Shown here: positions 20,674 to 34,135 of the stretch, one piece after another
Position numbering within the stretch: the first letter of the stretch is position 1
Layout: each line of letters opens with the position of its first letter
DNA from: Methylophilaceae bacterium
GTDB taxonomy: Bacteria; Pseudomonadota; Gammaproteobacteria; Burkholderiales; Methylophilaceae
DNA length: 64,000 nucleotides
Assembly (NCBI GenBank): GCA_027488395.1
Contig: JAIYBT010000015.1
Span: 116,679 to 180,678, forward strand
Reading direction: 5' to 3'
Program-made: the position numbers and the translations under genes
Notes under the pieces: model-generated
What the model was told of the DNA's origin: nothing
Databases searched by the model: none
Seen by the model: only the letters and a program-made list of their open reading frames with translations

Positions 20674-20979
20674 ATGGATCAGCAAGCACTCAATATCGAA
20701 GATGTTATCGCACTCAAAGGCGCTACTATGCTTGAGTTTGGTGCGATTGAATGCAGTTACTGCCAGGCTGCACATTCCAAAATTAACGCTGCATTGGTAA
20801 ATTATCCTAATGTACGTCATATTAAGATTGAAGATGGTAAAGGCCGCAGGCTAGGGCGTTTGTTTCACGTGAAACGTTGGCCAACGTTGGTGTTGTTAAA
20901 AGACGGTTTAGAGGTTACACGTTTGGTGCGTGAGATTGGCGACAAAGAATTACAGTTTGCATTAGCGTTGATTGACTAA
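20674..20979 (+). CDS. Thioredoxin-family protein
   Basis: CSYC CxxC motif, WPTLV cis-Pro motif, 101 aa. Confidence 0.8.
   Translation: MDQQALNIEDVIALKGATMLEFGAIECSYCQAAHSKINAALVNYPNVRHIKIEDGKGRRLGRLFHVKRWPTLVLLKDGLEVTRLVREIGDKELQFALALID
20861..20876. promoter_or_regulatory. parS site inside the thioredoxin-family gene
   Basis: TGTTTCACGTGAAACG, 15/16 match to consensus. Confidence 0.85.
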
Positions 20980-21037: not shown

Positions 21038-23089
21038 TTACACCTTTACCCATTCACTGCCCAAGCTTAACCAGCGCTGACAATGCGCATCTACTGCCTC
21101 TGGCGTTTGTTCTAATAAGCGCACGGCGACCAGTTTTGCTTGATCGAGCAATTCAACATCACGTTCTAAATCAGCAATTTTTAACATGGGTACACCGCTT
21201 TGGCGGGTACCTAATAACTCACCAGGACCACGTATGGTTAAATCGGCTTGGGCAATGGCAAAACCATCGGTGCTTTCATAAATCACTTTTAGCCGTGCAC
21301 GACCAAGTTTTGTGCATTGTTGACGGTTATACAGCAAGATACAGGTGCTTTTTGCCGCGCCACGGCCGACGCGGCCACGCAGTTGATGCAGTTGGCTTAG
21401 GCCCATACGTTCGGCGTGTTCAATCACCATTAAACTGGCATTGGGCACATCAACACCTACCTCAATCACGGTGGTTGCCACCAGTAGTTGCAGTTGGTTA
21501 GTAGCAAAACCCATCATCACCGCTTGTTTTTCTGCAGGTTTCATACGGCCATGCACCAAGCCCACTTTAAGCTCGGGAAACGCACTTTGCAGATAAGCAT
21601 AGGTATCGTTGGCGGTTTGCAGTTGCAAGGCTTCTGATTCTTCAATCAGCGGGCATACCCAATAAGCTTGCTGACCTTGTAAGCAGGCTTCCCGCACTCG
21701 TAGTAACACTTCTTCGCGCCTATCATCGGCAACCAGTTTGGTCACAATCGGCGTTCTGCCTGGCGGTAACGCATCAATCGTGGACACATCTAAATCGGCG
21801 TAATAACTCATGGAGAGTGTTCGCGGAATGGGGGTGGCGGACATCATCAGTTGATGTGGTTCCAGCTGTGCGTGTTGGCCCTTTTTGCGTAAGGATAACC
21901 GTTGCTGTACCCCAAAACGGTGTTGCTCATCGACTATCGAAAGACCAAGTTGCTTAAAGCTAACGTGATCTTGAAACAAAGCATGGGTGCCGACTGCAAG
22001 CATGGCTTTACCACTGCTGAGATCGGCAAGTGACTGCTCACGTTCTTTTTTGGGTTGGCTACCAGTCAGCCATGCAACATCGATGCCCAATGGGCTTAAC
22101 CAACCATGTAATTTTTTATAATGTTGTTCAGCTAAGATTTCGGTGGGCGCCATCATGGCAACTTGCCAGCCTTGTTCAATCAATTGTAATGCGGCAATAC
22201 AAGCCACCACAGTTTTGCCACTGCCCACATCGCCCTGCAATAAGCGTTGCATCGGATGCGCCTGCTGCAAATCGTGCGCAATTTCATGCACCACTTTTTG
22301 CTGCGCAGCGGTCAATTGAAAAGGTAACTTGGCGAGCAGTTGAGGTACTAAACGTTGGGAAGGGGCAATAGCAGGCGCATGGGATTGCTTGCGTCTGGCA
22401 TAGTGTTGGCGCATCGACAGTTGTTGTGCCAATAATTCATCGTAGGCGAGTCGTTGCCAAGCGGGGTGACTACGGTCCTCTAAGCTTGAATAAGCAATGT
22501 CAGGCGTTGGCTGATGGAGTAGGCGCAGACTATTTGCAAAGCTAGGGTGATTCAACGTGGCATACACCCAGGTCGGTAGCGTTTCCTCCAAGGTGCAAAG
22601 CGTTAAACATTTTTGAACGGCTTTACGTAATGCGGTTTGGCTCAAACCAGCCGTTGTAGGGTACACGGGGGTAAGATTAGTACTGACGGGTGTGTCTTCT
22701 AGCACTTTACGTTGTTGCGGATGTACCATCTCATAGCCAAAAAAGCCAGCGCGTACCTCGCCGTAAACACGCAAACGCGTGCCAACTTGCATGGCTGCAA
22801 TTTGGCTGGGATAAAAGTGCATGTAACGCAGTGCCAATACACCACTGGCGTCTTCGATGCGCACTTGCAAAGCGCGACGGGGCTTGTAGCTCACCTCAGC
22901 ATGCACAACCACACCTTCAACTTGCGATTGCTCACCAACCCGCAAATCACGAATCAACGTGACCCGTGTTTCATCTAAATAACGTAGCGGTAAATGTAAC
23001 AAAAGCCCTGCAGGCGCATAAATGCCTAATTTAGAGAGTTGCGCGATCAGAGCGGGGCTAAACCCTTTAATCTCGCTAAAACGATGCAT
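21038..23089 (-). CDS. recG: ATP-dependent DNA helicase RecG
   Basis: RLLQGDVGSGKT, DEQHRFG, MSATPIPRT, QLHQLRGRVGRG. Confidence 0.98.
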   Translation of the reverse strand: MHRFSEIKGFSPALIAQLSKLGIYAPAGLLLHLPLRYLDETRVTLIRDLRVGEQSQVEGVVVHAEVSYKPRRALQVRIEDASGVLALRYMHFYPSQIAAMQVGTRLRVYGEVRAGFFGYEMVHPQQRKVLEDTPVSTNLTPVYPTTAGLSQTALRKAVQKCLTLCTLEETLPTWVYATLNHPSFANSLRLLHQPTPDIAYSSLEDRSHPAWQRLAYDELLAQQLSMRQHYARRKQSHAPAIAPSQRLVPQLLAKLPFQLTAAQQKVVHEIAHDLQQAHPMQRLLQGDVGSGKTVVACIAALQLIEQGWQVAMMAPTEILAEQHYKKLHGWLSPLGIDVAWLTGSQPKKEREQSLADLSSGKAMLAVGTHALFQDHVSFKQLGLSIVDEQHRFGVQQRLSLRKKGQHAQLEPHQLMMSATPIPRTLSMSYYADLDVSTIDALPPGRTPIVTKLVADDRREEVLLRVREACLQGQQAYWVCPLIEESEALQLQTANDTYAYLQSAFPELKVGLVHGRMKPAEKQAVMMGFATNQLQLLVATTVIEVGVDVPNASLMVIEHAERMGLSQLHQLRGRVGRGAAKSTCILLYNRQQCTKLGRARLKVIYESTDGFAIAQADLTIRGPGELLGTRQSGVPMLKIADLERDVELLDQAKLVAVRLLEQTPEAVDAHCQRWLSLGSEWVKV

Positions 23090-23112: not shown

Positions 23113-25326
23113 TTATTGAATACGTTGTTGCTCAAGAGACACGCCTTTAACCCGATTAATGCGCACCACTTGTTGAATTTTACGTAAATTGCGTATTAAC
23201 TCAGCCAAGTGCACGCGGTTATGCACTTGAACTGTAAAGTTAACATTCGAATACTGGCTACCATCACTGTCTTCAACCCCAACATTATCAATATTTGAGT
23301 CAGAATTAGAAATCGTAGACGCAATTTTGGCAAGCATGCCGCGTTCGTTGACCACAGTAATACGTAAATTAACTTTAAATAGTTTTTTGTGATCGGCATC
23401 CCACTCCACATCCAACCATTTTTCAGGATCTAATTTAAATTTACGGATGGCCAAGCAATCATGGGTATGAATCACCAAGCCTTTGTCTTTATTAATAAAC
23501 CCTAAAATCGGATCGCCAGGAATTGGGCGGCAACACTGCGCAAACTGGACGGCCATGCCTTCAGAACCACGGATGGTAATCGTATCGAGTGGTTTGGTTT
23601 TATCATCATTTTCATGTGCAGGGTGGGCAAGCAATTGATGCGCCACCATCAGACTATTGCGTTTACCCAAGCCAATATCGGTCAAAATGGCTTGTCTGGT
23701 TTTTGCGCCATAATCGTTCATTACTTTTTGCCATTGTTTTTCAGCCACCTCTTGTGGTTCAACATGCATGGCGCGCAGGGCAACGTTCAACATACGCTCA
23801 CCCAATTGTGCTGATTCTTCCACTTTTACCGTTTTCAGGTAATGACGAATATGTGAGCGTGCTTTGCCGGTAACCACATAATTCAGCCAAGCAGGATTGG
23901 GCTTGGCGAGCGGTGCAGTGATAATTTCAACATGATCGCCATTGCGCATTTCAGTACGTAACGGCGCAAGCTCATTATTAATTTTAACTGCGACACAACT
24001 GTTACCCACATCGGTATGCACGGCATAAGCAAAATCAACCGCCGTTGAACCACGCGGTAAGGCCATGATGTTGCCTTTGGGCGTAAATACATAGACTTCA
24101 TCTGGAAATAAATCCACCTTAAAGTGCTCAAGAAACTCATAGCTGTCATCGCTTTCGGTTTGAATTTCGACCAAGCGTTGTAACCATTGATGGGTTTGTT
24201 GTTGCAGTTTTGTCAGATGGGCATCATTGGTTTTATACAGCCAGTGCGCCGCAACGCCAGCATCTGCAATGTTATGCATTTCTTCACTGCGTATTTGCAC
24301 CTCGATGGGCGTACCAAACGGACCAAATAAAGTGGTATGTAACGATTGATAACCGTTGGCTTTGGGAATGGCAATATAATCTTTAAACCGCCCAGGAATA
24401 GGTTTGTATAACGCGTGTAGCGCACCCAAAGCTAAATAGCAGGCCGCATTGTCTTTTACAATCACTCGAAAGCCATAAATATCGTTGATTTGCGAAAGAC
24501 GCATGGATTTTTCGGCCATTTTTTTATAAATACTGTGCAGGTGTTTTTCACGCCCCTGTACATCGTATTCAATCTGAAACAGCTTGAGTTGATTTTGGAT
24601 GGCTTCCAAAATTTTACCGATGACTTCTTTGCGATTACCGCGCGCAACCTTAATTGCCTTATCAATGACCCGAAACCGGTTGGGGTATAAGTATTGAAAA
24701 CTCAAATCTTCGAGTTCGTGGTAGATTGGATTTAAGCCAAGGCGATTAGCAATCGGCGCATAAATATCCATGGTTTCACGGGCAATGCGCTTTTGCTTTT
24801 CTGGCCGCATTGCTTGAAGGGTTTGCATGTTATGCAAACGATCCGCCAGTTTGACTAAAATAACACGCACATCTTGGCTCATGGCGAGCAACATTTTGCG
24901 GAAATTTTCTGCTTGTGCTTGCGTAGCGGTTTGTAGCTCGACTTTGTCTAACTTGGTGAGGCCATCGACTAAATCAGCCACCTGTTTGCCAAACAATTGC
25001 GTGATTTCATCATTATTCACATGGGTGTCTTCCACCACATCATGCAATAACGCAGCCAACAGCGTGGGTAAATCGAGATGCATACTGGCCAAAATACAAG
25101 CCACTGCAACCGGATGGGTGATGTACGGCTCACCCGTTTTGCGGGTTTGGCCATCGTGCGCGCGTTCCGCGTAACGATAAGCTTGCCAAACCAGCTGGAT
25201 TTCTTCTTCGGTGAGGTATTTCTTGATGCGCGTGGTGAGTGGCGAATCTTCGCGATCAGCAGGCAGCAATTCCGCTTCTATCAGGGCAGATTTGGATTTG
25301 CGATGTTCACCAAGAAAGGGGGACAT
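23113..25326 (-). CDS. spoT: Bifunctional (p)ppGpp synthetase/hydrolase SpoT
   Basis: HD hydrolase HDVVED, KLADRLHN, synthetase YQSLHT/EVQIR, TGS domain DFAYAVHT, C-terminal ACT-like domain. Confidence 0.97.
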   Translation of the reverse strand: MSPFLGEHRKSKSALIEAELLPADREDSPLTTRIKKYLTEEEIQLVWQAYRYAERAHDGQTRKTGEPYITHPVAVACILASMHLDLPTLLAALLHDVVEDTHVNNDEITQLFGKQVADLVDGLTKLDKVELQTATQAQAENFRKMLLAMSQDVRVILVKLADRLHNMQTLQAMRPEKQKRIARETMDIYAPIANRLGLNPIYHELEDLSFQYLYPNRFRVIDKAIKVARGNRKEVIGKILEAIQNQLKLFQIEYDVQGREKHLHSIYKKMAEKSMRLSQINDIYGFRVIVKDNAACYLALGALHALYKPIPGRFKDYIAIPKANGYQSLHTTLFGPFGTPIEVQIRSEEMHNIADAGVAAHWLYKTNDAHLTKLQQQTHQWLQRLVEIQTESDDSYEFLEHFKVDLFPDEVYVFTPKGNIMALPRGSTAVDFAYAVHTDVGNSCVAVKINNELAPLRTEMRNGDHVEIITAPLAKPNPAWLNYVVTGKARSHIRHYLKTVKVEESAQLGERMLNVALRAMHVEPQEVAEKQWQKVMNDYGAKTRQAILTDIGLGKRNSLMVAHQLLAHPAHENDDKTKPLDTITIRGSEGMAVQFAQCCRPIPGDPILGFINKDKGLVIHTHDCLAIRKFKLDPEKWLDVEWDADHKKLFKVNLRITVVNERGMLAKIASTISNSDSNIDNVGVEDSDGSQYSNVNFTVQVHNRVHLAELIRNLRKIQQVVRINRVKGVSLEQQRIQ

Positions 25327-25332
25327 AACAGG

Positions 25333-25545
25333 TTATGGTTGCCCCTTGCTGAGCAATTCAACGCCAATCTTGCCTGCAGCGATTTCACGCAGCGCAATCA
25401 CGGTTGGTTTATCTTTTAACGAGTAACCGCTAACCAAGGGATCGGAGCCATTGGCTAATTGACGCGCGCGATAGGCTGCGACTAAAGTGAGTTGAAAGCG
25501 ATTTGGAATATTTTCTAAACAATCATCGACTGTAATACGAGCCAT
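25333..25545 (-). CDS. rpoZ: RNA polymerase omega subunit
   Basis: [36 protein letters not shown]. Confidence 0.98.
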
Positions 25546-25594
25546 AGTAAACCTCTTTTGATTAAATCGCAGACCACGCCCAAACGCGAAAGCG

Positions 25595-26206
25595 TTAGGT
25601 GAGTGATTGGATGAGTGGGGCGTGGCAGGCAGATTGTCGCGCTAAGGTTAACCGATGCGCGCGTATGATTGCCATTAAGTCTTGCAATGCCACGTCAAAA
25701 ATGTCGTTTATTGTAACATAATCAAAGGCATGCACATGACGCATTTCCTCGCGTGCTGCGGCTAAACGCCTTGCAATCACGGCTTCACTGTCTTGTCCGC
25801 GCTGGTTGAGCCGATGGGACAGCGCCTCCATCGAAGGGGGTAAGATAAAAATCAACGTCGCGCTCGGAAAAATGCGACGAATTTGCTCGGCACCTTGCCA
25901 ATCAATTTCTAAAATCACGTCACGCCCGGCATTCAACGCAGCCTGCACCGCAGTTTGTGAGGTGCCGTAATGTGCGCCATGTACTGCTGCACTTTCTAAA
26001 AAACCACCTTGCGCTTGCACAGCCAAAAACTCCGCTTCTGATACAAAATGGTAATGAATGCCTTCTTCTTCCCCAGGCCGAGGCGCGCGCGTGGTATGCG
26101 AGACCGATAATTTAAGCAATGGATCTTGATCCAACATGGCACGGACCAGGCTGGTTTTTCCCGCACCAGAGGCGGCTGAAATGACAAATAAATGACCGAG
26201 GCTCAT
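25595..26206 (-). CDS. gmk: Guanylate kinase
   Basis: [27 protein letters not shown]; likely start ATG 26206 overlapping the Anbu stop (ATGA). Confidence 0.97.
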
Positions 26207-26940
26207 GGTTGTACCCAATCTGGATTTGGTAATGCTGAAAATACCGATTTTAAGCCTTCGCCCCAACCTTTGCGAATGACCGCGTAATATGGATCTTGAT
26301 CGGTTAAGCGTTTAATCGGCGCAGCGCGCAAACTGTCTTTGGGGTAAATCATTAAATCGATCGGCATGGCCACCGATATATTGCTACGGATGGTCGAATC
26401 AAACGAAATCAACACACATTTAACGGCATCCATCATGTCAGTGTGATATTTCACAACACGGTCGATGATCGGTTTGCCATATTTGGTTTCACCAATTTGT
26501 AAATAAGGCGTATCCGCCGTGGCCTCAATAAAGTTTCCAGCAGCGTATACATTAAAAAGCCGGGGCTTTTCACCTTGAATTTGTCCTGCAACTAATACGC
26601 TCGCATTAAAATCAATGCCATGTTCCTTTAAGGCCTCACCATCGCGCTGAAACACGCTACGCATGGCAGCACCCACCACTGTTGCCGCCTCAAACATTGA
26701 CTGCACATTGAGTAGGTGAGTCGCATGCTCACTATTTTTGAGTTGTTCGCGTAACAAATTCACCACAGATTGCGTGATGGCTAAATTGCCAGCCGTTAGT
26801 AGCACAATCATGCGTTCACCATGATCTTCAAATACATGCATTTTAGGGGCAATCGCGACTTGATCCACCCCAGCGTTGGTGCGCGTATCTGAAGCCAACA
26901 CCAAACCTTGTTCCAGTAAAATGCCAACACAGTACGTCAT
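26203..26940 (-). CDS. Proteasome-type Ntn protease (Anbu family)
   Basis: N-terminal MTYCVG (Thr nucleophile after Met removal), SDTRTNAGVD, QIGETKYGKPIIDR, FDSTIRSNISV. Confidence 0.92.
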   Translation of the reverse strand: MTYCVGILLEQGLVLASDTRTNAGVDQVAIAPKMHVFEDHGERMIVLLTAGNLAITQSVVNLLREQLKNSEHATHLLNVQSMFEAATVVGAAMRSVFQRDGEALKEHGIDFNASVLVAGQIQGEKPRLFNVYAAGNFIEATADTPYLQIGETKYGKPIIDRVVKYHTDMMDAVKCVLISFDSTIRSNISVAMPIDLMIYPKDSLRAAPIKRLTDQDPYYAVIRKGWGEGLKSVFSALPNPDWVQP

Positions 26941-26970
26941 AACATTGTGACCGTTGTTCGATAAACCATG

Positions 26971-26979
26971 ATCATAACA
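26971..26979 (-). promoter_or_regulatory. Possible extended -10 promoter for Anbu-gmk-rpoZ-spoT
   Basis: TGtTATGAT on the minus strand about 30 nt upstream of the Anbu ATG; no good -35. Confidence 0.4.
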
Positions 26980-27244
26980 TGGGCGCTTACCGACGACGAT
27001 GGTGCGCTTTTGTACGCATACATTGCCGTGTTGTTAGCTATGGGGGTATGAATGTAGGGGAACTGTGCTTAATATCAAGCAATGGTTCCGCATGCGTGCA
27101 GTCGATACAATCGTTGTTAAGACAATCAATTTACAAGAGCGCCTAAGATTACATCAGGCTGATAGCCTTGACTGCTTTGCCTGTGCGGGGCGCATGAAAA
27201 AAACTAAACCACCCAGCAATGCTTAGCGCAACATAGACGCTAGC

Positions 27245-27277
27245 AAAAATTCCAACGGCTTAACGATAATTGGAATT
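27245..27277 (-). terminator. Possible weak terminator after the alpha-E gene
   Basis: AATTCCAA-14 nt-TTGGAATT stem ending in a short U-run on the minus strand. Confidence 0.35.
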
Positions 27278-27295
27278 GTCACAACATCAGGTCAT

Positions 27296-28240
27296 TTATA
27301 CCGTAGCGTTTAAGAAGCTACGTTGGATCTCATCGCCTAAACGACGGTTAGCCAAAATAAAATCATCTAAAAAGGTGTGTAAGCCGTCTTTTAAAATATC
27401 CAGCATACGGCCGTAGTGCAGTGTTGCATGCGTCTGCCCAGCCAACCGTTCAGCTTCGGTTTGGCGTGCCCCTGCGACTTGTCGCAAAATCGGCATGATC
27501 TCTGCATAGCAAGCATGCAATGAGCGCGGCATATCTTGTCTAAGTACCAATAGCTCAGAGACTTTCACCGGGTCTATCGCATCGCTGTAGACTTTTTGGT
27601 AGGCCTGAAACGCAGACACCGAACGCAGGACTGCACTCCATTCGTAGTAATCCACGGCGCCATCGTTGGCTGCTTGCTGAGGTATCAATACCTCATATTT
27701 CACATCGAGTAAGCGCGCGGTATTGTCAGCACGCTCCATAAAGGTTCCTAAGCGTACAAAGTTAAATGCATCATCGCGTAGCATGGTGCCAAAACATACG
27801 CCTCGGAATAAATGGGAGCGGCTTTTTACCCATTCGCAAAACTCACCCAAGCCAGATTGGGTTAAATCTTGTTTAATATACTGGCCAAACTCGAGCCAGA
27901 GGGTGTTCATGTTTTCCCAAGTTTCGACCGTCATGGCGACCCGCACGGCCCGCGCGTTTTCACGGGCACTGCGCAAAGTGCTGTAGATGCTCGAAGGATT
28001 GTGGCTATCCATGACCAAATGTTTAATCACATTGGTCGCATTAATGGTTGGATACGTGCTGTCAAAAATGTGTCGGATGCCCGCAATTTCTAATACCGCA
28101 TTCCACAAATCATGCTCGTTGCTGCTGTCACTGGGCAATAGTGACATGTTGTAGGTCACATCCAATACCCGTGCCACATTCTCTGCACGCTCTATATAGC
28201 GTGCCATCCAATATAAATTATCTGCAGTGCGGCTTAACAT
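27296..28240 (-). CDS. Alpha-E domain protein (DUF403 family)
   Basis: MLSRTADNLYWMARYIERAEN, ARENARAVR, second ER motif GTFMERADNTARLLDVK, PRSL. Confidence 0.93.
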   Translation of the reverse strand: MLSRTADNLYWMARYIERAENVARVLDVTYNMSLLPSDSSNEHDLWNAVLEIAGIRHIFDSTYPTINATNVIKHLVMDSHNPSSIYSTLRSARENARAVRVAMTVETWENMNTLWLEFGQYIKQDLTQSGLGEFCEWVKSRSHLFRGVCFGTMLRDDAFNFVRLGTFMERADNTARLLDVKYEVLIPQQAANDGAVDYYEWSAVLRSVSAFQAYQKVYSDAIDPVKVSELLVLRQDMPRSLHACYAEIMPILRQVAGARQTEAERLAGQTHATLHYGRMLDILKDGLHTFLDDFILANRRLGDEIQRSFLNATV

Positions 28241-29724
28241 ACCACCTCTTTATTGATGAACTGACTGGCATCTTGATGTTGTGACGCAGTTTGACCGATA
28301 TCATCCCGCTCAAGTACCCAAGTATCTTTGGTACCGCCACCTTGAGATGAATTCACCACCAATGAGCCCTCTTTTAAAGCGACCCGTGATAAACCACCTG
28401 GGACCACGCTAACCGATTTGCCTGATAACACAAATGGACGCAGATCCACATGGCGAGGCGCAATCCCTTGATCGACCAAAGTGGGGCAAGTCGATAATGC
28501 AAGGGTAGGTTGCGCAATGTAGTTGTCTGGTTTAGACACAATTCTGAGTCGAAACTCTTCGATTTCCTGATGGCTGGCGGTTGGCCCAACTAACATGCCA
28601 TAACCGCCAGAGCCTTGTACTTCTTTCACCACCAACTCCGCTAAATGTGCAAGCACATAAGCCAAATCATCGGCTTTGCTGAGTTGATACGTGGGCACGT
28701 TTTGCAGGATAGGCGTTTCACCTAGGTAGAACTTAATCATCTCCGGCACGTAAATATACGTTGCCTTGTCATCGGCAACGCCGGTGCCTACGGCGTTGGC
28801 CAATGTGACGCCACCGTTGCGGTAGACGGAGAGTAGACCCGGTACGCCCAACATGGAATCAGGCTTGAACACCAGTGGGTCTAGGTAGTCGTCGTCAATG
28901 CGGCGGTAAATCACGTCGACCCGTTTAGGGCCTTGCGTGGTACGCATATAGACGGCGTTATTGCGGACAAACAAATCTTGGCCTTCGACTAATTCAATGC
29001 CCATTTGTTGGGCTAAAAAGGCGTGTTCAAAATAAGCGCTGTTATACGCACCAGGTGACATCAGCACCACGGTTGGATCAGTAATTCCAGTTTGCGCTAC
29101 CGAGCGTAAGTTGTTGAGTAACACCTGTGGATAATGCTCGACCGGTGCAATGGGGTACTGACGGAATAAATCTGGAAATAACCGCATCATCATTTTGCGG
29201 TCTTCCAACATATACGACACGCCAGAAGGGGTACGCAGATTATCTTCTAATACGTAAAACTGCGATTCGCTGGTGCGCACCAAATCAATACCCGCCACAT
29301 GCGCATATACCTTGTTTGGCACATCGACCCCGACCATTTCAGGACGGTATTGACTATTGGTTAAGATGTTTTGTGGGACGATACCCGCTTTGATAATTTC
29401 TTGGTCATGATAAATATCATGTAAAAAAAGATTGAGCGCACGCACGCGTTGCACCGCGCCTGTGGATAGATGCGCCCATTCGCTGGCAGAAATCATGCGT
29501 GGAATCACATCAAACGGAATCAAGCGCTCAGCGCCATCTTCCTCACCATATACGTTAAAGGTAATGCCTACGCGGCGAAACAACACTTCTGCTTCCGCGC
29601 GTTTTGCCACCAGTTGTTGGGTGGGTACATTGGCTAACCAACGTTGATAGGCTTGATAGATCGCACGGACGTTGCCGCCATAGGCTTGCATCTCATCAAA
29701 AAACTGTTTGGCCGACTGCGTCAT
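28234..29724 (-). CDS. Circularly permuted type 2 ATP-grasp protein
   Basis: GITFNVYG, LEDNLRTPSGVSY, NSAYFEHAFLA, DVIYRRIDDDYLDP, VVNSSQGGGTKDTWV. Confidence 0.93.
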   Translation of the reverse strand: MTQSAKQFFDEMQAYGGNVRAIYQAYQRWLANVPTQQLVAKRAEAEVLFRRVGITFNVYGEEDGAERLIPFDVIPRMISASEWAHLSTGAVQRVRALNLFLHDIYHDQEIIKAGIVPQNILTNSQYRPEMVGVDVPNKVYAHVAGIDLVRTSESQFYVLEDNLRTPSGVSYMLEDRKMMMRLFPDLFRQYPIAPVEHYPQVLLNNLRSVAQTGITDPTVVLMSPGAYNSAYFEHAFLAQQMGIELVEGQDLFVRNNAVYMRTTQGPKRVDVIYRRIDDDYLDPLVFKPDSMLGVPGLLSVYRNGGVTLANAVGTGVADDKATYIYVPEMIKFYLGETPILQNVPTYQLSKADDLAYVLAHLAELVVKEVQGSGGYGMLVGPTASHQEIEEFRLRIVSKPDNYIAQPTLALSTCPTLVDQGIAPRHVDLRPFVLSGKSVSVVPGGLSRVALKEGSLVVNSSQGGGTKDTWVLERDDIGQTASQHQDASQFINKEVVC

Positions 29725-29845: not shown

Positions 29846-29886
29846 CGCACCTATTTGGTGCGTTTGAGAATCACGGTTTTGGTGCA
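29846..29886. promoter_or_regulatory. Two NtrC-type enhancer sites
   Basis: CGCACC-TATTT-GGTGCG (29846-29862, perfect palindrome) and minus-strand TGCACCAAAACCGTGAT (29870-29886); centres about -96 and -120 from the predicted TSS near 29758. Confidence 0.78.
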
Positions 29887-29946: not shown

Positions 29947-30828
29947 TTATTCTAGGTTTTGAATTTGTTCACGCATTTGCTCAATCAGCACTTTAAGTTG
30001 CATTGAGATTTGTGTGGTTTCAATCGCAACCGATTTTGAGCCTAAGGTGTTGGCTTCTCGGTTCATCTCTTGCATCAAAAAATCAAGCTTTTTACCGACA
30101 CTACCACCTGCCTCAAGGATGCGTGCCACTTCAGTGATGTGTGACTGCAAACGCGCCAGTTCTTCATCCACATCGATACGTTGCGCAAACAAGACGATTT
30201 CCTGACGCACCCGCTCATCATCGGCCAGCATCGCCTCACGTAATTTTGTGATCAGCTTTTCTTGATATTGATGTATCAGCGCGGGCATCAGCGGTTTGAC
30301 TAAAGCCACTTGCTCGCGCACCAGAGATAGTTTTTCCAACATTACCTGTTTGAGCTTTTCACCTTCACGTTGCCGTGCCGCGATGAGTTCTTGGATGGTC
30401 TGTGCCAGACCGACGTTTAAGCAATCGGCCAATTGCGTGAGGTCAAGGCCTTCGCCTTGCACAACCCCAGGTAATTGATAAATATCCACCAAATTCACGG
30501 GCTGTGCTTCTGGGAAATAAGTCGACAATTGTTGAATCGCATCGGCAATTTGCGTGATTACCGCTGTGTTTAAACGCAATGCAGTGCTCGCCACATGATC
30601 TGTTTTTAAACTCAAACGGCATTCAACTTTACCGCGCCCCAATTGCGCTTGTAACTGCTCACGCACCAAGCCTTCAAATTGACGCAAACTATCCTCAATT
30701 TTGACATGCAGTTCGAGATAACGATGATTGACGGCACGACATTCAATCAACAAGGTGCCACTTTCAAAACGGCTCTCGCTGGCAGCAAAGCCAGTCATAC
30801 TTAAAATCGGTCGCGTGGTGCTTGCCAT
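29947..30828 (-). CDS. yicC: YicC/YloC family endoribonuclease
   Basis: SMTGFA, VNHRYLEL, RGKVEC, GKKLDFLMQEMNREANTLGSK, EQMREQIQNLE. Confidence 0.96.
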   Translation of the reverse strand: MASTTRPILSMTGFAASESRFESGTLLIECRAVNHRYLELHVKIEDSLRQFEGLVREQLQAQLGRGKVECRLSLKTDHVASTALRLNTAVITQIADAIQQLSTYFPEAQPVNLVDIYQLPGVVQGEGLDLTQLADCLNVGLAQTIQELIAARQREGEKLKQVMLEKLSLVREQVALVKPLMPALIHQYQEKLITKLREAMLADDERVRQEIVLFAQRIDVDEELARLQSHITEVARILEAGGSVGKKLDFLMQEMNREANTLGSKSVAIETTQISMQLKVLIEQMREQIQNLE

Positions 30829-30931
30829 GATGGGTCTCGTGCTAAGAAGGGGGTGATTGTATCAAATGCCCTAGGGTTATGCGAAAATAGACAAATTGCG
30901 TGCGCGCGTCTTGCCCTGTGGCCCAAAGGTT

Positions 30932-31861
30932 GTGAAGGTATCCCATAAAACGCAGTTTGCTTTGCCAGTTGGCACCGTCTTACACGAATACACGATTACC
31001 CGCTTATTGAGTTTGGGCGGCTTTAGTTTCGTCTATTTAGCTAAAGACGCGCAAAAGCGCACCGTCGCCATTAAAGAGTATATGCCCGTGAGCTTGGCCG
31101 AGCGCCATGGGAGCCAAGTGACGCCCAATGGCAAAAACGACACAGCCTTTAAGCATGGGATGAAGTGTTTTTTTGAAGAAGGCTTGGCACTGGCCAATAT
31201 TGAACACAAAAACATTGTGCGGGTACAAAACTTTTTTAGAGCGCACAGCACCGTGTACATGGTGATGAAGTACGAGCGCGGTAAATCGCTACAAGATTAC
31301 ATCATGGCCGTGCAACAGCCTATCCCTGAAGCGTTTTTATTGCGTATGTTTGCAGAGTTGCTCAATGGCTTGCGCGAAGTGCATTTGCGCAAAGTGCTGC
31401 ATTTAGACATCAAGCCTGCCAATATTTATATTCGGTTGGATGGCTCACCGGTGTTGTTAGATTTTGGGTCTGCGCGCCAAGCGTTGTCAGAGGCGACGCT
31501 TGCACCTACCTTCACCCCCGGGTTTGCCTCGCCAGAGCAATATTATGACCGTAAGCATTTGGGGCCTTGGAGTGATATTTACAGTATCGGCGCTAGTTTA
31601 TACGCTTGTTTACATCGCACATCCCCGCAACCAGCCAATGCGCGTATGCAACAAGATAGTTTGCAGCCAGCAAGTCAGCTCGGTAAACATATTTATTCTG
31701 AAAAATTGCTTGCGATTATTGATGAGTGTATGCAGCTTGATTATTTGCAGCGCCCCCAAAGTGTATTTTCATTACAAAAGAAAATCATCGATATCGCTAA
31801 CACGGCCGCCCCAACCACAGTGGCCGATAAACTGTTTCAACTGCTCACAAAACCATTATGA
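30932..31861 (+). CDS. Hanks-type Ser/Thr protein kinase, cytoplasmic
   Basis: SLGGFSFVY, AIKEY, HLDIKPAN, DFG, PEQ, SDIYSIG; no TM segment; likely GTG start 30932 (track 30896). Confidence 0.93.
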   Translation: MKVSHKTQFALPVGTVLHEYTITRLLSLGGFSFVYLAKDAQKRTVAIKEYMPVSLAERHGSQVTPNGKNDTAFKHGMKCFFEEGLALANIEHKNIVRVQNFFRAHSTVYMVMKYERGKSLQDYIMAVQQPIPEAFLLRMFAELLNGLREVHLRKVLHLDIKPANIYIRLDGSPVLLDFGSARQALSEATLAPTFTPGFASPEQYYDRKHLGPWSDIYSIGASLYACLHRTSPQPANARMQQDSLQPASQLGKHIYSEKLLAIIDECMQLDYLQRPQSVFSLQKKIIDIANTAAPTTVADKLFQLLTKPL

Positions 31862-32775
31862 AATTTTCCATTGCACAGGGCAGTCGTCAGGGGCCGCGGA
31901 CTTATAACCAAGACCGCTTGGCCTATACTTATAATCGTCAAGCCATTTTGATGGTCTTAGCGGATGGCATGGGCGGCCATTTGCATGGCGAGGTGGCCGC
32001 CGACATTGTCGTGAAAGGCATGATTGAAGCGTTTCATCGTGAGGCAACGCCGCTGATTGGTCATCCTGCACAGTTCTTGCGCACCCACATACAACAACTG
32101 CACACCGTCATTGAGCGTGTAAAGCAACAAAAAAATCTCCATGAATCGCCACGCACGACAGTGGTAGTGACCTTAATCCAACATAATCTTTTATTTTGTG
32201 CGCATGTTGGTGATTCTCGTTGCTATGTCTACCGAAACGGCTTGTCTGCTTTTCAAACACAAGATCATTCAGTAGTACAGTCGTTGTTACGCGAAGGCAA
32301 AATTAGCGAGACAGAGCTCAATACGCACCCACATCGCAATAAAATTTATAATTGTGTGGGGGGTGATCACGCGCCCGAAGTGGAGTTATCGGATCCGATT
32401 GCACTGATTGAAGGTGACGTCGTGTTGCTTTGCTCGGACGGGGTGTGGAACGCATTGCCCGAATTAACCATGGCGCAACATACGCTTGCTGCAGACGTCA
32501 GTGATACGGTTCACCGTTTGTTGGACGATGCCGAAGCTGCGAGTTTGCAAGGGGGTGACAATATGAGTACGGTTGCCCTGCAATGGGGGGATCGTCAACA
32601 TGCCCGCTTTACCATCTCGACCTTGGATCTACCCATTGACGGTAACACGACCATGATTAATCAAGTGAAGCTCAATGCGGATACCCCCGCCCTCGATTTA
32701 ACCGACGCTGAAATAGAACGTGCGATTGCCGAAATCCACGAAGCCCTAGGCAAAACCAGACAGATACTTAAATAA
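31858..32775 (+). CDS. PP2C/PPM-family Ser/Thr phosphatase
   Basis: [35 protein letters not shown]; ATGA overlap with kinase. Confidence 0.95.
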
Positions 32776-32788
32776 AAGGATATCAACC

Positions 32789-33505
32789 ATGCAAAGACCC
32801 AGCCAGCGCGCCGTAGACCAATGCCGCCCCATTACCCTGACACGCCACTACACCAAACATGCAGAAGGGTCGGTGCTGGTGCAATTTGGCGACACCCAGG
32901 TGATTTGCACTGCCAGTGTCGAGGAAAAAGTCCCCGGCTTTTTGAAAGGCAAAGGCCAAGGTTGGGTGACAGCCGAATACGGCATGTTGCCCCGCTCAAC
33001 TGGTAGCCGCATGGACCGTGAGGCGGCCAAGGGTAAACAAAGCGGCCGCACTCAAGAAATTCAACGCTTGATAGGCCGTAGTTTACGCGCAGTGATCGAC
33101 CTTGAAAAACTAGGTGAGCGCACCATCCATTTTGATTGTGACGTGATTCAAGCCGATGGCGGCACCCGCACAGCCAGTATCACCGGTGCTTATGTTGCCA
33201 TGTGTGATGCGGTGAATACCTTATTAAGTAAAGGTCTCATCACGGCCTCACCCATCACCGATTCTGTGGCTGCGGTATCGGTCGGCGTGTATCAAGGCGT
33301 GGCGGTGCTCGATTTAGATTACCTGGAAGATTCAGCCTGCGACACCGACATGAATGTGGTGATGACTGGCCGTGGTGGCTTTGTTGAAATTCAAGGCACG
33401 GCCGAAGGTGCGGCCTTTGATCGCAACACCATGCTGACCATGCTCGATTTGGCGGCCAAAGGCATTTCAGAAATCACGCAGTTACAATTGCGTAGCTTGG
33501 CTTAA
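32789..33505 (+). CDS. rph: Ribonuclease PH
   Basis: [42 protein letters not shown]. Confidence 0.98.
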
Positions 33506-33511
33506 CACACT

Positions 33512-34135
33512 ATGGCACTGCCTTTCTCACAGTTAGTGTTGGCGTCAAACAATGCGGGTAAATTGCGCGAATTTGCGCATTTATTGGCGCCACTGCAGAT
33601 TGAAATCCTCGCGCAAAGCACGCTGCATGTGCCGGCTTGCCCCGAACCGCACTGTACCTTTATTGAAAACGCGCTGGCAAAAGCACGCCATGCCAGTGCA
33701 CACACAGGCTTACCTGCCTTGGCAGATGACTCTGGCTTGTGCGTAGCGGCATTGGGCGGTGCGCCTGGCGTGCTGTCTGCACGCTATGCCGGGCCAACAC
33801 CGCCCAACAGTGGGCTGAGTCAAGATGAACGCAATAATGATTTATTGCTCGAAAACATGCGTGGTATTGGGCAACGGCGTGCACATTTTTATACGGTGCT
33901 GGTGTTGGTGCGTCACGCACAAGATCCACAACCATTGATTGCAGAGGGGTGCTGGCACGGTGAAATATTGGGTGAATATCGCGGCAATGATGGTTTTGGC
34001 TATGACCCTTTATTTATGGATGCGATGACGGGCAAAACGGTGGCCGAGTTAGCGATAGACATCAAAAACCGCATCAGTCATCGCGGGCAAGCCATGGCAA
34101 AATTGCTGCAACAGCTAGAAAGATTAAGCACATGA
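33512..34135 (+). CDS. rdgB: dITP/XTP pyrophosphatase RdgB
   Basis: LASNNAGKLRE, ENALAKAR, LADDSGL, FGYDPLF, SHRGQA. Confidence 0.97.
   Translation: MALPFSQLVLASNNAGKLREFAHLLAPLQIEILAQSTLHVPACPEPHCTFIENALAKARHASAHTGLPALADDSGLCVAALGGAPGVLSARYAGPTPPNSGLSQDERNNDLLLENMRGIGQRRAHFYTVLVLVRHAQDPQPLIAEGCWHGEILGEYRGNDGFGYDPLFMDAMTGKTVAELAIDIKNRISHRGQAMAKLLQQLERLST

Follow-up and report, generated by a model that had tools for sequence, protein, structure and literature searches.

The canonical operon of Anbu, a proteasome beta-like Ntn hydrolase, encodes a circularly permuted ATP-grasp protein, an Alpha-E protein, a transglutaminase and Anbu, and has been described in P. aeruginosa, P. putida and Yersinia bercovieri (PMC3235984; Iyer 2009; PMC5666114). 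Anbu is expressed constitutively at a moderate level and is upregulated in nitrogen-limited P. putida cultures (PMC5666114). The spo operon of E. coli and other Proteobacteria has the order gmk-rpoZ-spoT-(trmH)-recG (Gentry & Burgess 1989, PMC209740; order in PMC10213339), and co-transcription of rpoZ and spoT was shown in A. vinelandii (PMC10994330). We analyzed a 64-kb stretch of DNA (64,000 nucleotides [nt], hereafter the window) from a Methylophilaceae bacterium, in which these two operons are joined on the minus strand in the order yicC, sigma-54 promoter, ATP-grasp, alpha-E, a 355-nt gap, Anbu, gmk, rpoZ, spoT and recG. To our knowledge, neither a substrate nor a physiological role has been established for Anbu, which makes any stable genomic association of its gene a lead. 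In bacterial operons, ATGA or TGATG junctions are associated with translational coupling, for example in trpB-trpA and in ribosomal protein operons, and 4-nt overlaps are the commonest overlap class in bacteria.

Compared with the canonical Anbu operon, the locus has the same protein order and an intact catalytic triad, most Methylophilus relatives carry all four genes, and the predicted sigma-54 promoter of the window agrees with the nitrogen response of Anbu in P. putida. It differs in that the window has no transglutaminase gene but a 355-nt spacer instead, and in that gmk-rpoZ-spoT-recG follows Anbu with a 4-nt overlap; gmk was downstream of Anbu in 0 of 45 loci outside Methylophilaceae. 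The locus shares with the E. coli spo operon the order gmk, rpoZ, spoT, recG, very short spacers (gmk-rpoZ 49 nt, rpoZ-spoT 6 nt, spoT-recG 23 nt) and yicC as the ancestral upstream neighbor. Unlike that operon, it has a protease gene with a promoter of its own directly upstream, the gmk start lies within the stop codon of this gene, and trmH is absent between spoT and recG in the window. The Anbu literature searched does not mention an association with gmk. The Anbu-gmk unit is a lineage-specific variant joining two well-known operons.

Anbu-gmk-rpoZ-spoT(-recG) is probably a single expression unit, driven constitutively by an extended -10 promoter that belongs to Anbu (TGTTATGAT; Table 1). 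A preliminary description of the window had put the protease at the head of the gmk-rpoZ-spoT(-recG) cluster and had read an ATGA overlap between the Anbu stop and the gmk start; both points were confirmed, the gene order on the minus strand, the families by profile searches and the overlap at exactly the positions claimed. The gmk frame is open back to a TTG at 26266, and alignment with 24 relatives favors the ATG at 26206 as the start. A lone ATGA overlap is unremarkable, being common in bacterial operons, and its retention is beyond chance. Conservation was scored in a sample of 36 genomes of the genus (the junction in the 30 best Anbu loci), in 40 further loci from 29 other Methylophilaceae genera and in the 45 loci outside the family. 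Anbu was found in 35 of the 36 genomes of the genus, the sole exception being the genome G036, and gmk-rpoZ-spoT directly followed it in 29 of the 30 best loci. The junctions of these 29 loci measured -4 nt (n = 20), -1 nt (ATGATGA, n = 5) and +2 or +3 nt (n = 4). Conservation of the overlap, on which the preliminary description had made its reading depend, is thus borne out by the count. The linkage is also present in Methylotenera and several other genera of the family, where Anbu identity falls as low as approximately 69%. The gaps there, from 0 to +57 nt, are too short to hold an independent intergenic promoter for gmk. Among the linked loci, no rearrangement was found between Anbu and gmk; all breakpoints lie upstream of the Anbu promoter.

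Methylovorus, Methylobacillus and many other members of the family lack the linkage, as do seven divergent genomes that GTDB places in the same genus. In the Anbu tree, linked sequences formed one clade with support of 98/98 (27 linked rows and one unlinked long branch), and one further linked row was not resolved. Because the linked sequences form one clade, the linkage appears to have arisen essentially once and to have been inherited thereafter; several independent origins are ruled out by this tree. One unlinked Anbu inside the linked clade (L095 of G187), with no gmk downstream, may represent a later loss of the linkage. yicC and gmk were adjacent in most of 28 other genomes of the genus and order, and yicC directly preceded gmk-rpoZ-spoT in the seven divergent genomes mentioned above and in most of the families sampled from the order. 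The distance between yicC and gmk in unlinked relatives was 12-200 nt, often just 12 nt. As yicC followed by gmk-rpoZ-spoT appears to be the ancestral order, the earlier statement that the Anbu module interrupts the yicC-gmk adjacency was correct.

The 100-160 nt before the Anbu ATG were compared across the linked loci and could not be aligned apart from one element. This element, TGnTAnnAT in the form TGnTA(T/A)(G/C/A)AT, is present in 39 of 39 distinct linked loci, at 26-42 nt upstream of the Anbu ATG, against a background expectation of 0.011 per locus. Its form is that of an extended -10 sigma-70 promoter, which is predicted to fire; no conserved -35 element was found in the linked loci, and the flanks of the -10 are unalignable. 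With a predicted transcription start at approximately 26962-26967, the leader would be some 25 nt long and would lack a Shine-Dalgarno sequence. The left boundary (26979) and the guessed start (~26964) of the preliminary description coincide with this conserved element. Many unlinked Anbu genes of the family carry gTATGAT at the same position, so the element would be Anbu's own promoter and older than the linkage. No sigma-54 motif was found before Anbu in 29 linked loci beyond one 9/11 match at chance level, and 32 unlinked loci gave just one similarly weak match. Anbu operons in general may have an internal promoter for Anbu, and such a promoter fits the reported constitutive, moderate expression of Anbu (PMC5666114). 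Many of the proteobacterial Anbu genes among the loci outside the family (L154-L198) have a TAGAAT, TAAAAT or GATAAT hexamer near the ATG; in L163, L168, L174, L179 and L182, TAGAAT ends 4-6 nt before the ATG and would give a leaderless mRNA.

A natural deletion separates the expression signals of Anbu from the protease. G036 is a close sister of G022, with 84% DNA identity in the region. In its locus (L051, G036:C5), approximately 675 nt inside Anbu are replaced by approximately 44 nt. The promoter (TGGTATCAT), the leader, ATG-ACA-TAT, the last ~55 nt of Anbu and the ATGA overlap with gmk are all retained. The remnant forms an in-frame open reading frame (ORF) of 35 codons (MTYVGILNSTCRPRQVALGFKNVLPALPRPDWSDA and a stop; MTYVGIL...ALPRPDWSDA), the TGA of which overlaps the gmk ATG. 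This species can serve as a natural control: it indicates that the protease is dispensable for expressing gmk-spoT, and the preserved parts appear to be exactly those needed for gmk transcription and ribosome delivery. The in-frame outcome may be chance (about 1 in 3 for a single event), and it supports rather than proves coupling. The locus fits a dependence of gmk on the expression signals of Anbu, not on the protease.

In the other linked genomes, Anbu appears to be a working gene under purifying selection. A phmmer search against the PDB gave matches over residues 2-242 to 5LOY (1.4e-94), 5NYW (1.7e-84) and 5NYJ, 5LOX and 5NYF (~1e-70), and the Pfam Proteasome profile PF00227 scored 37 bits (cut-off 22.4). 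Thr2, Asp18 and Lys33, corresponding to the catalytic Thr1, Asp17 and Lys32-33, were invariant in 40 gmk-linked Anbu sequences. The catalytic Thr stands directly behind the initiator Met (M-T-Y-C-V-G), with no propeptide. The ratio of nonsynonymous to synonymous substitution rates (dN/dS) was 0.03-0.12 for Anbu, and ~0.09 for G022 despite the loss of all its partners; saturation of dS in most comparisons makes these values rough. Anbu as a decaying spacer is ruled out by the dN/dS values of 0.03-0.12 together with the invariant catalytic residues. The preliminary description had called Anbu an orphan protease, which does not hold: the window has intact ATP-grasp and alpha-E genes a short way upstream on the same strand, and only the transglutaminase gene, present in most sisters, is missing.

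Such selection, acting on an invariant triad even in the partnerless G022, would also be expected if a tie between the activity of Anbu and GTP/(p)ppGpp homeostasis had led to its recruitment, with co-expression with Gmk and SpoT as the selected trait; the protease might, for example, supply amino acids or turn over a component of the stringent response. The persistence of the linkage over several genera, down to the Anbu identity given above, is in line with this idea, as is the upregulation of Anbu in a starvation setting, nitrogen-limited P. putida (PMC5666114). We nevertheless regard it as improbable. G036 lost the body of Anbu and kept its promoter, start and in-frame end. No linkage was seen in the 45 loci outside the family, in Methylovorus, in Methylobacillus or in the seven divergent genomes. 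The link has essentially one origin with no convergent recruitment, and it was not found in the literature searched. A functional tie of the protease to (p)ppGpp is unlikely, and the G036 deletion speaks against it. The description of Anbu as wired into the stringent-response operon stands for the gene architecture only. More improbable still is a full partnership in methylotrophs, in which the protease, Gmk, omega and SpoT would be set from one promoter and the A/T-rich stretch after the hexamer would make this promoter ppGpp-insensitive or ppGpp-activated. If it were true, proteolytic amino-acid recycling and GTP/(p)ppGpp metabolism would rise and fall together, and Anbu, whose function has long been unknown, would serve ppGpp-linked proteolysis in starvation. 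So far, knowledge of the stringent response is unchanged by the Anbu-gmk finding.

We compared the translation signals along the unit by the duplex energy with the anti-Shine-Dalgarno sequence. Anbu had a median of +0.6 kcal/mol, essentially no Shine-Dalgarno sequence, and rpoZ had -6.5 kcal/mol. gmk had a median of -5.4 kcal/mol in linked loci and a weak -3.7 kcal/mol in the window, and gmk in the ancestral-type position 12 nt after yicC had a poor -2.5 kcal/mol. The GGAG, GGTG or GGGG before linked gmk comes from the Trp codon region of the conserved ...PDW tail of Anbu. Because unlinked gmk stands 12 nt behind yicC with a poor Shine-Dalgarno sequence, gmk would already have been a coupled gene before the linkage, and it appears always to have relied on an upstream reading frame, earlier that of yicC and now that of Anbu. 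With a downstream start overlapping an upstream stop, Anbu and gmk have the structure of a translationally coupled pair, and gmk is predicted to depend on translation of Anbu. The pair resembles trpB-trpA and the overlapping pairs of ribosomal protein operons in the -4 or -1 nt overlap, the conserved arrangement, and the weak to moderate downstream Shine-Dalgarno sequence situated within the upstream coding sequence. It differs from them in that Anbu and gmk have no known functional relation, and the coupling is deduced, with the G036 remnant as its best support.

The same moderate Shine-Dalgarno-like motif, present at gmk in most relatives, is what would be expected if promoters within Anbu or gmk accounted for most of the transcription of gmk or rpoZ-spoT and the ATGA were a neutral by-product of compaction with no role in expression. 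This alternative seems unlikely. It can draw on the commonness of 4-nt overlaps and on E. coli, where rpoZ-spoT has its own promoter inside gmk. In addition, TTCGCA-18-TAAAAT at 26276-26247 in the window, 40-70 nt upstream of the gmk start codon, weakly matches a sigma-70 promoter. However, the TAAAAT part is missing from the G022 and G036 sequences compared, and the region held 12 promoter-like matches against 12.7 in shuffled sequence. Synonymous sites evolve freely at the 3' end of Anbu: synonymous diversity among the 40 linked Anbu genes was 0.66-0.75 in the last 40 codons and ~0.7-0.8 elsewhere, and where the profile dips mildly (alignment columns 176-200), reading the alignment base by base showed the usual variation at third codon positions. 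A conserved gmk promoter inside Anbu, which the preliminary description had named as evidence that would count against its reading, was thus found neither in the synonymous profile nor by motif comparison. Further, the G036 deletion took nearly all of the Anbu interior, yet the promoter before it and a frame open up to the gmk start were spared, and no rearrangement among the linked loci has parted Anbu from gmk. No conserved -10 was visible in the gmk-rpoZ spacers of 41-53 nt, which showed only the conserved rpoZ Shine-Dalgarno sequence and variable small hairpins. These spacers (25546-25594 in the window; L031-L046) differ in sequence, and several can form a short GC-rich hairpin after the gmk stop with no U-tail. 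This hairpin is a possible element of mRNA processing or stability; the fold of the window was no better than that of shuffled sequence.

Expression of gmk, rpoZ and spoT from the signals of Anbu has to be weighed against several points. The firing of the promoter, co-transcription and the translational coupling of gmk to Anbu are all deduced from sequence. The 39 linked loci appear to descend from essentially one event and would not be independent. The moderate GGAG, GGTG or GGGG motif could let gmk initiate translation by itself, and rpoZ has a strong Shine-Dalgarno sequence. Lineage-specific or weak internal promoters may exist, such as an rpoZ promoter inside gmk, and the dN/dS values carry the uncertainty given above. 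Dependence of gmk-rpoZ-spoT on the expression signals of Anbu is nevertheless most likely, and it is the most economical reading: an inserted gene would have brought an essential gene under its own signals, and compaction would have followed. In the ancestor of the Methylophilus/Methylotenera clade, a canonical nitrogen-regulated Anbu operon would have come between yicC and gmk, bringing a sigma-54 promoter, ATP-grasp, alpha-E, transglutaminase and then Anbu behind its internal promoter. The insertion would have severed the essential gmk from its formerly tight neighbor yicC, leaving it dependent on the Anbu promoter and on ribosomes coming through Anbu. In the Methylophilus line, the spacer would then have shrunk from tens of nt to the ATGA overlap. 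The Anbu-gmk joint would have been frozen from then on, with the region upstream of the Anbu promoter free to change and the transglutaminase gene lost in the window. On this account, the locus would be a clear example of an essential gene, gmk, that has come to need the promoter and the translation signals of an inserted gene unrelated to it, with the junction frozen over the long term. For annotation, it suggests that tight conserved synteny with a start/stop overlap can mirror expression dependence and is not by itself proof of shared function.

The genes upstream of Anbu varied among the relatives. Most Methylophilus species have the full four-gene Anbu operon, with the transglutaminase stop 52-105 nt before Anbu. 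Where the window has its spacer (355 nt in full between alpha-E and Anbu, 26941-27295), relatives have a transglutaminase gene of 275-286 amino acids (PF08379/PF01841). This gene was lost in the window and in G005, whose spacers are mutually unrelated, and in G022 the ATP-grasp, alpha-E and transglutaminase genes are all gone and Anbu alone is kept. Anbu operons without transglutaminase were also found elsewhere. BLAST of the 355-nt gap against the transglutaminase genes and spacers of relatives gave chance matches only, and the gap was unalignable to that of a sister species with 86% identity and to that of G005. Rfam searches of the spacer and the unit at E <= 1 gave one spurious miRNA match only. 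In G023 (L044), G001 (L045) and G031 (L046), the transglutaminase gene and Anbu are separated by 2-4 kb of unrelated genes, of which several are on the opposite strand. The cargo differs among the three loci and, by eye, includes arsenic-resistance-like genes, a TonB-type receptor and a SulP-like transporter; the site just 5' of the Anbu promoter is an insertion hot spot. Methylotenera-type loci carry an extra gene for a protein of about 400 amino acids, or unrelated genes, upstream of Anbu. The former encodes a conserved protein of 400-414 amino acids (HLATRVYSQNREVAILEY, NYGPRLHHMAISVKDG, ENVAKLTEAAGFM) between the transglutaminase gene and the Anbu promoter (L098 1694-2896, L100 1679-2881, L081 1680-2924, L079 1747-2979, L113 138-1346). 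One of the operons with this protein is unlinked, and the protein had no Pfam match at E <= 0.01.

The sigma-54 promoter before ATP-grasp looks real by every sequence test. In 11 gmk-linked relatives, TGGCAC-N5-TTGCT stands 51-61 nt ahead of the start codon of the ATP-grasp gene, and the unlinked operons of G002 and G008 have it at -30; a weaker TGGTAT variant was found at -49 in two relatives. About 65-100 nt further upstream lie NtrC-like sites, read from the sequence against the consensus TGCACC-N5-GGTGCA; NtrC is predicted to bind there. The preliminary description stated that any read-through from this promoter would make spoT nitrogen-inducible. Transcription would then run through ATP-grasp, alpha-E and the spacer into Anbu-gmk-rpoZ-spoT and add to a basal level of spoT. 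We consider such read-through possible but doubtful; it is compatible with constitutive expression from the Anbu promoter, and both could hold. The promoter is perfect and conserved in position, with the NtrC-like sites upstream, and every gene is on the same strand. The spacer has one 9-bp hairpin that is AU-rich, weak and runs into U5 (~27277-27238; -15 kcal/mol with a neighboring hairpin), and folding (z = -2.1) revealed no strong terminator between the alpha-E stop and the Anbu promoter. The distance from the transglutaminase stop to Anbu is just the 52-105 nt given above in most Methylophilus species. With no strong terminator before Anbu, some read-through under nitrogen limitation is plausible in the window genome. 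However, the three relatives with 2-4 kb inserts have opposite-strand genes between the sigma-54 module and Anbu, the module is wholly absent in G022 and G036, and Anbu has its own predicted promoter everywhere. In view of these five relatives, read-through cannot be the reason why the architecture was kept, and it fails as a conserved design for spoT. The parallel drawn earlier with NtrC activation of relA in E. coli is also loose, as relA is a separate paralog located apart from spoT in complete Methylophilus genomes. Each of five such genomes has this second long RelA/SpoT homolog (RSH), with ~34% identity to SpoT. In the window genome, tblastn with SpoT found spoT only (92%-complete assembly), and its relA is either in the missing 8% of the assembly or lost.

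The window is part of a genome assembly of 2.45 Mb that is 92% complete, and the nearest named relatives of the source genome are Methylophilus species, such as M. flavus. Gene identities were assigned by Pfam and NCBIfam profile searches of the window proteins, and every assignment was confirmed (Table 1). Gmk has a P-loop, GAGKT, at residues 14-18. SpoT contains HD_4 (PF13328), RelA_SpoT (PF04607), TGS (PF02824) and ACT_4 (PF13291) domains; it scored 806 bits with TIGR00691 (cut-off 499) and 918.5 bits with the SpoT equivalog NF008303, just under the cut-off of 947. The RelA model NF008124 gave a far lower score than the SpoT model, 440.5 bits (cut-off 728).

Table 1. Features of the Anbu-gmk locus in the window, in the order of transcription
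Feature	Position (strand)	Remarks
yicC (YicC/YloC endoribonuclease)	29947-30828 (-)	PF03755, PF08340; TIGR00255, 261.7 bits (cut-off 167.5)
Putative NtrC-type sites	29847-29886 (-)	TGCACC half-site 29886-29881; palindrome GCACCAAATAGGTGC 29861-29847
Predicted sigma-54 promoter, TGGCACAGCGTTTGCT	29784-29769 (-)	60 nt before the ATP-grasp ATG; single perfect match in 64 kb
ATP-grasp protein, circularly permuted, of the Anbu operon	28234-29724 (-)	PF14403, 1.5e-165; PF04174, 1.9e-157
Alpha-E protein of the Anbu operon	27296-28240 (-)	PF04168, 1e-97
Spacer at the place of the transglutaminase gene	26980-27295 (-)	No ORF, remnant or Rfam match
Putative extended -10 promoter of Anbu, TGTTATGAT	26979-26971 (-)	Hexamer TATGAT at 26976-26971
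Anbu, proteasome beta-like Ntn hydrolase	26203-26940 (-)	245 amino acids; N-terminus MTYCVGI
ATGA, overlap of Anbu stop and gmk start	26203-26206 (-)	Read in caaccATGAgcc; gmk ATG 26206-26204, Anbu TGA 26205-26203
gmk, guanylate kinase	25595-26206 (-)	203 amino acids; TIGR03263, 234.6 bits (cut-off 160.45); PF00625
rpoZ, RNA polymerase omega subunit	25333-25545 (-)	TIGR00690; strong Shine-Dalgarno sequence AAGAGG
spoT, bifunctional (p)ppGpp synthetase/hydrolase	23113-25326 (-)	All four long-RSH domains found
recG, helicase, last same-strand gene of the cluster	21038-23089 (-)	NF008166, 1069.6 bits (cut-off 864)

The ORF beyond recG (20674-20979) is convergent to it. On the other side of the locus, divergent from yicC, the plus strand carries an overlapping gene pair at 30896-32775, which by eye encodes a Ser/Thr protein kinase (HLDIKPANIY motif) and a PP2C-type phosphatase. 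This pair is followed by rph (32789-33505) and an rdgB-like gene (33512-34135). A paralogous cluster on contig C1 of the window genome (G000; 62366-69083) contains a circularly permuted ATP-grasp gene (34% identity) and two transglutaminase-like genes (24-32%). It has no Anbu gene and represents a second system of this general type.

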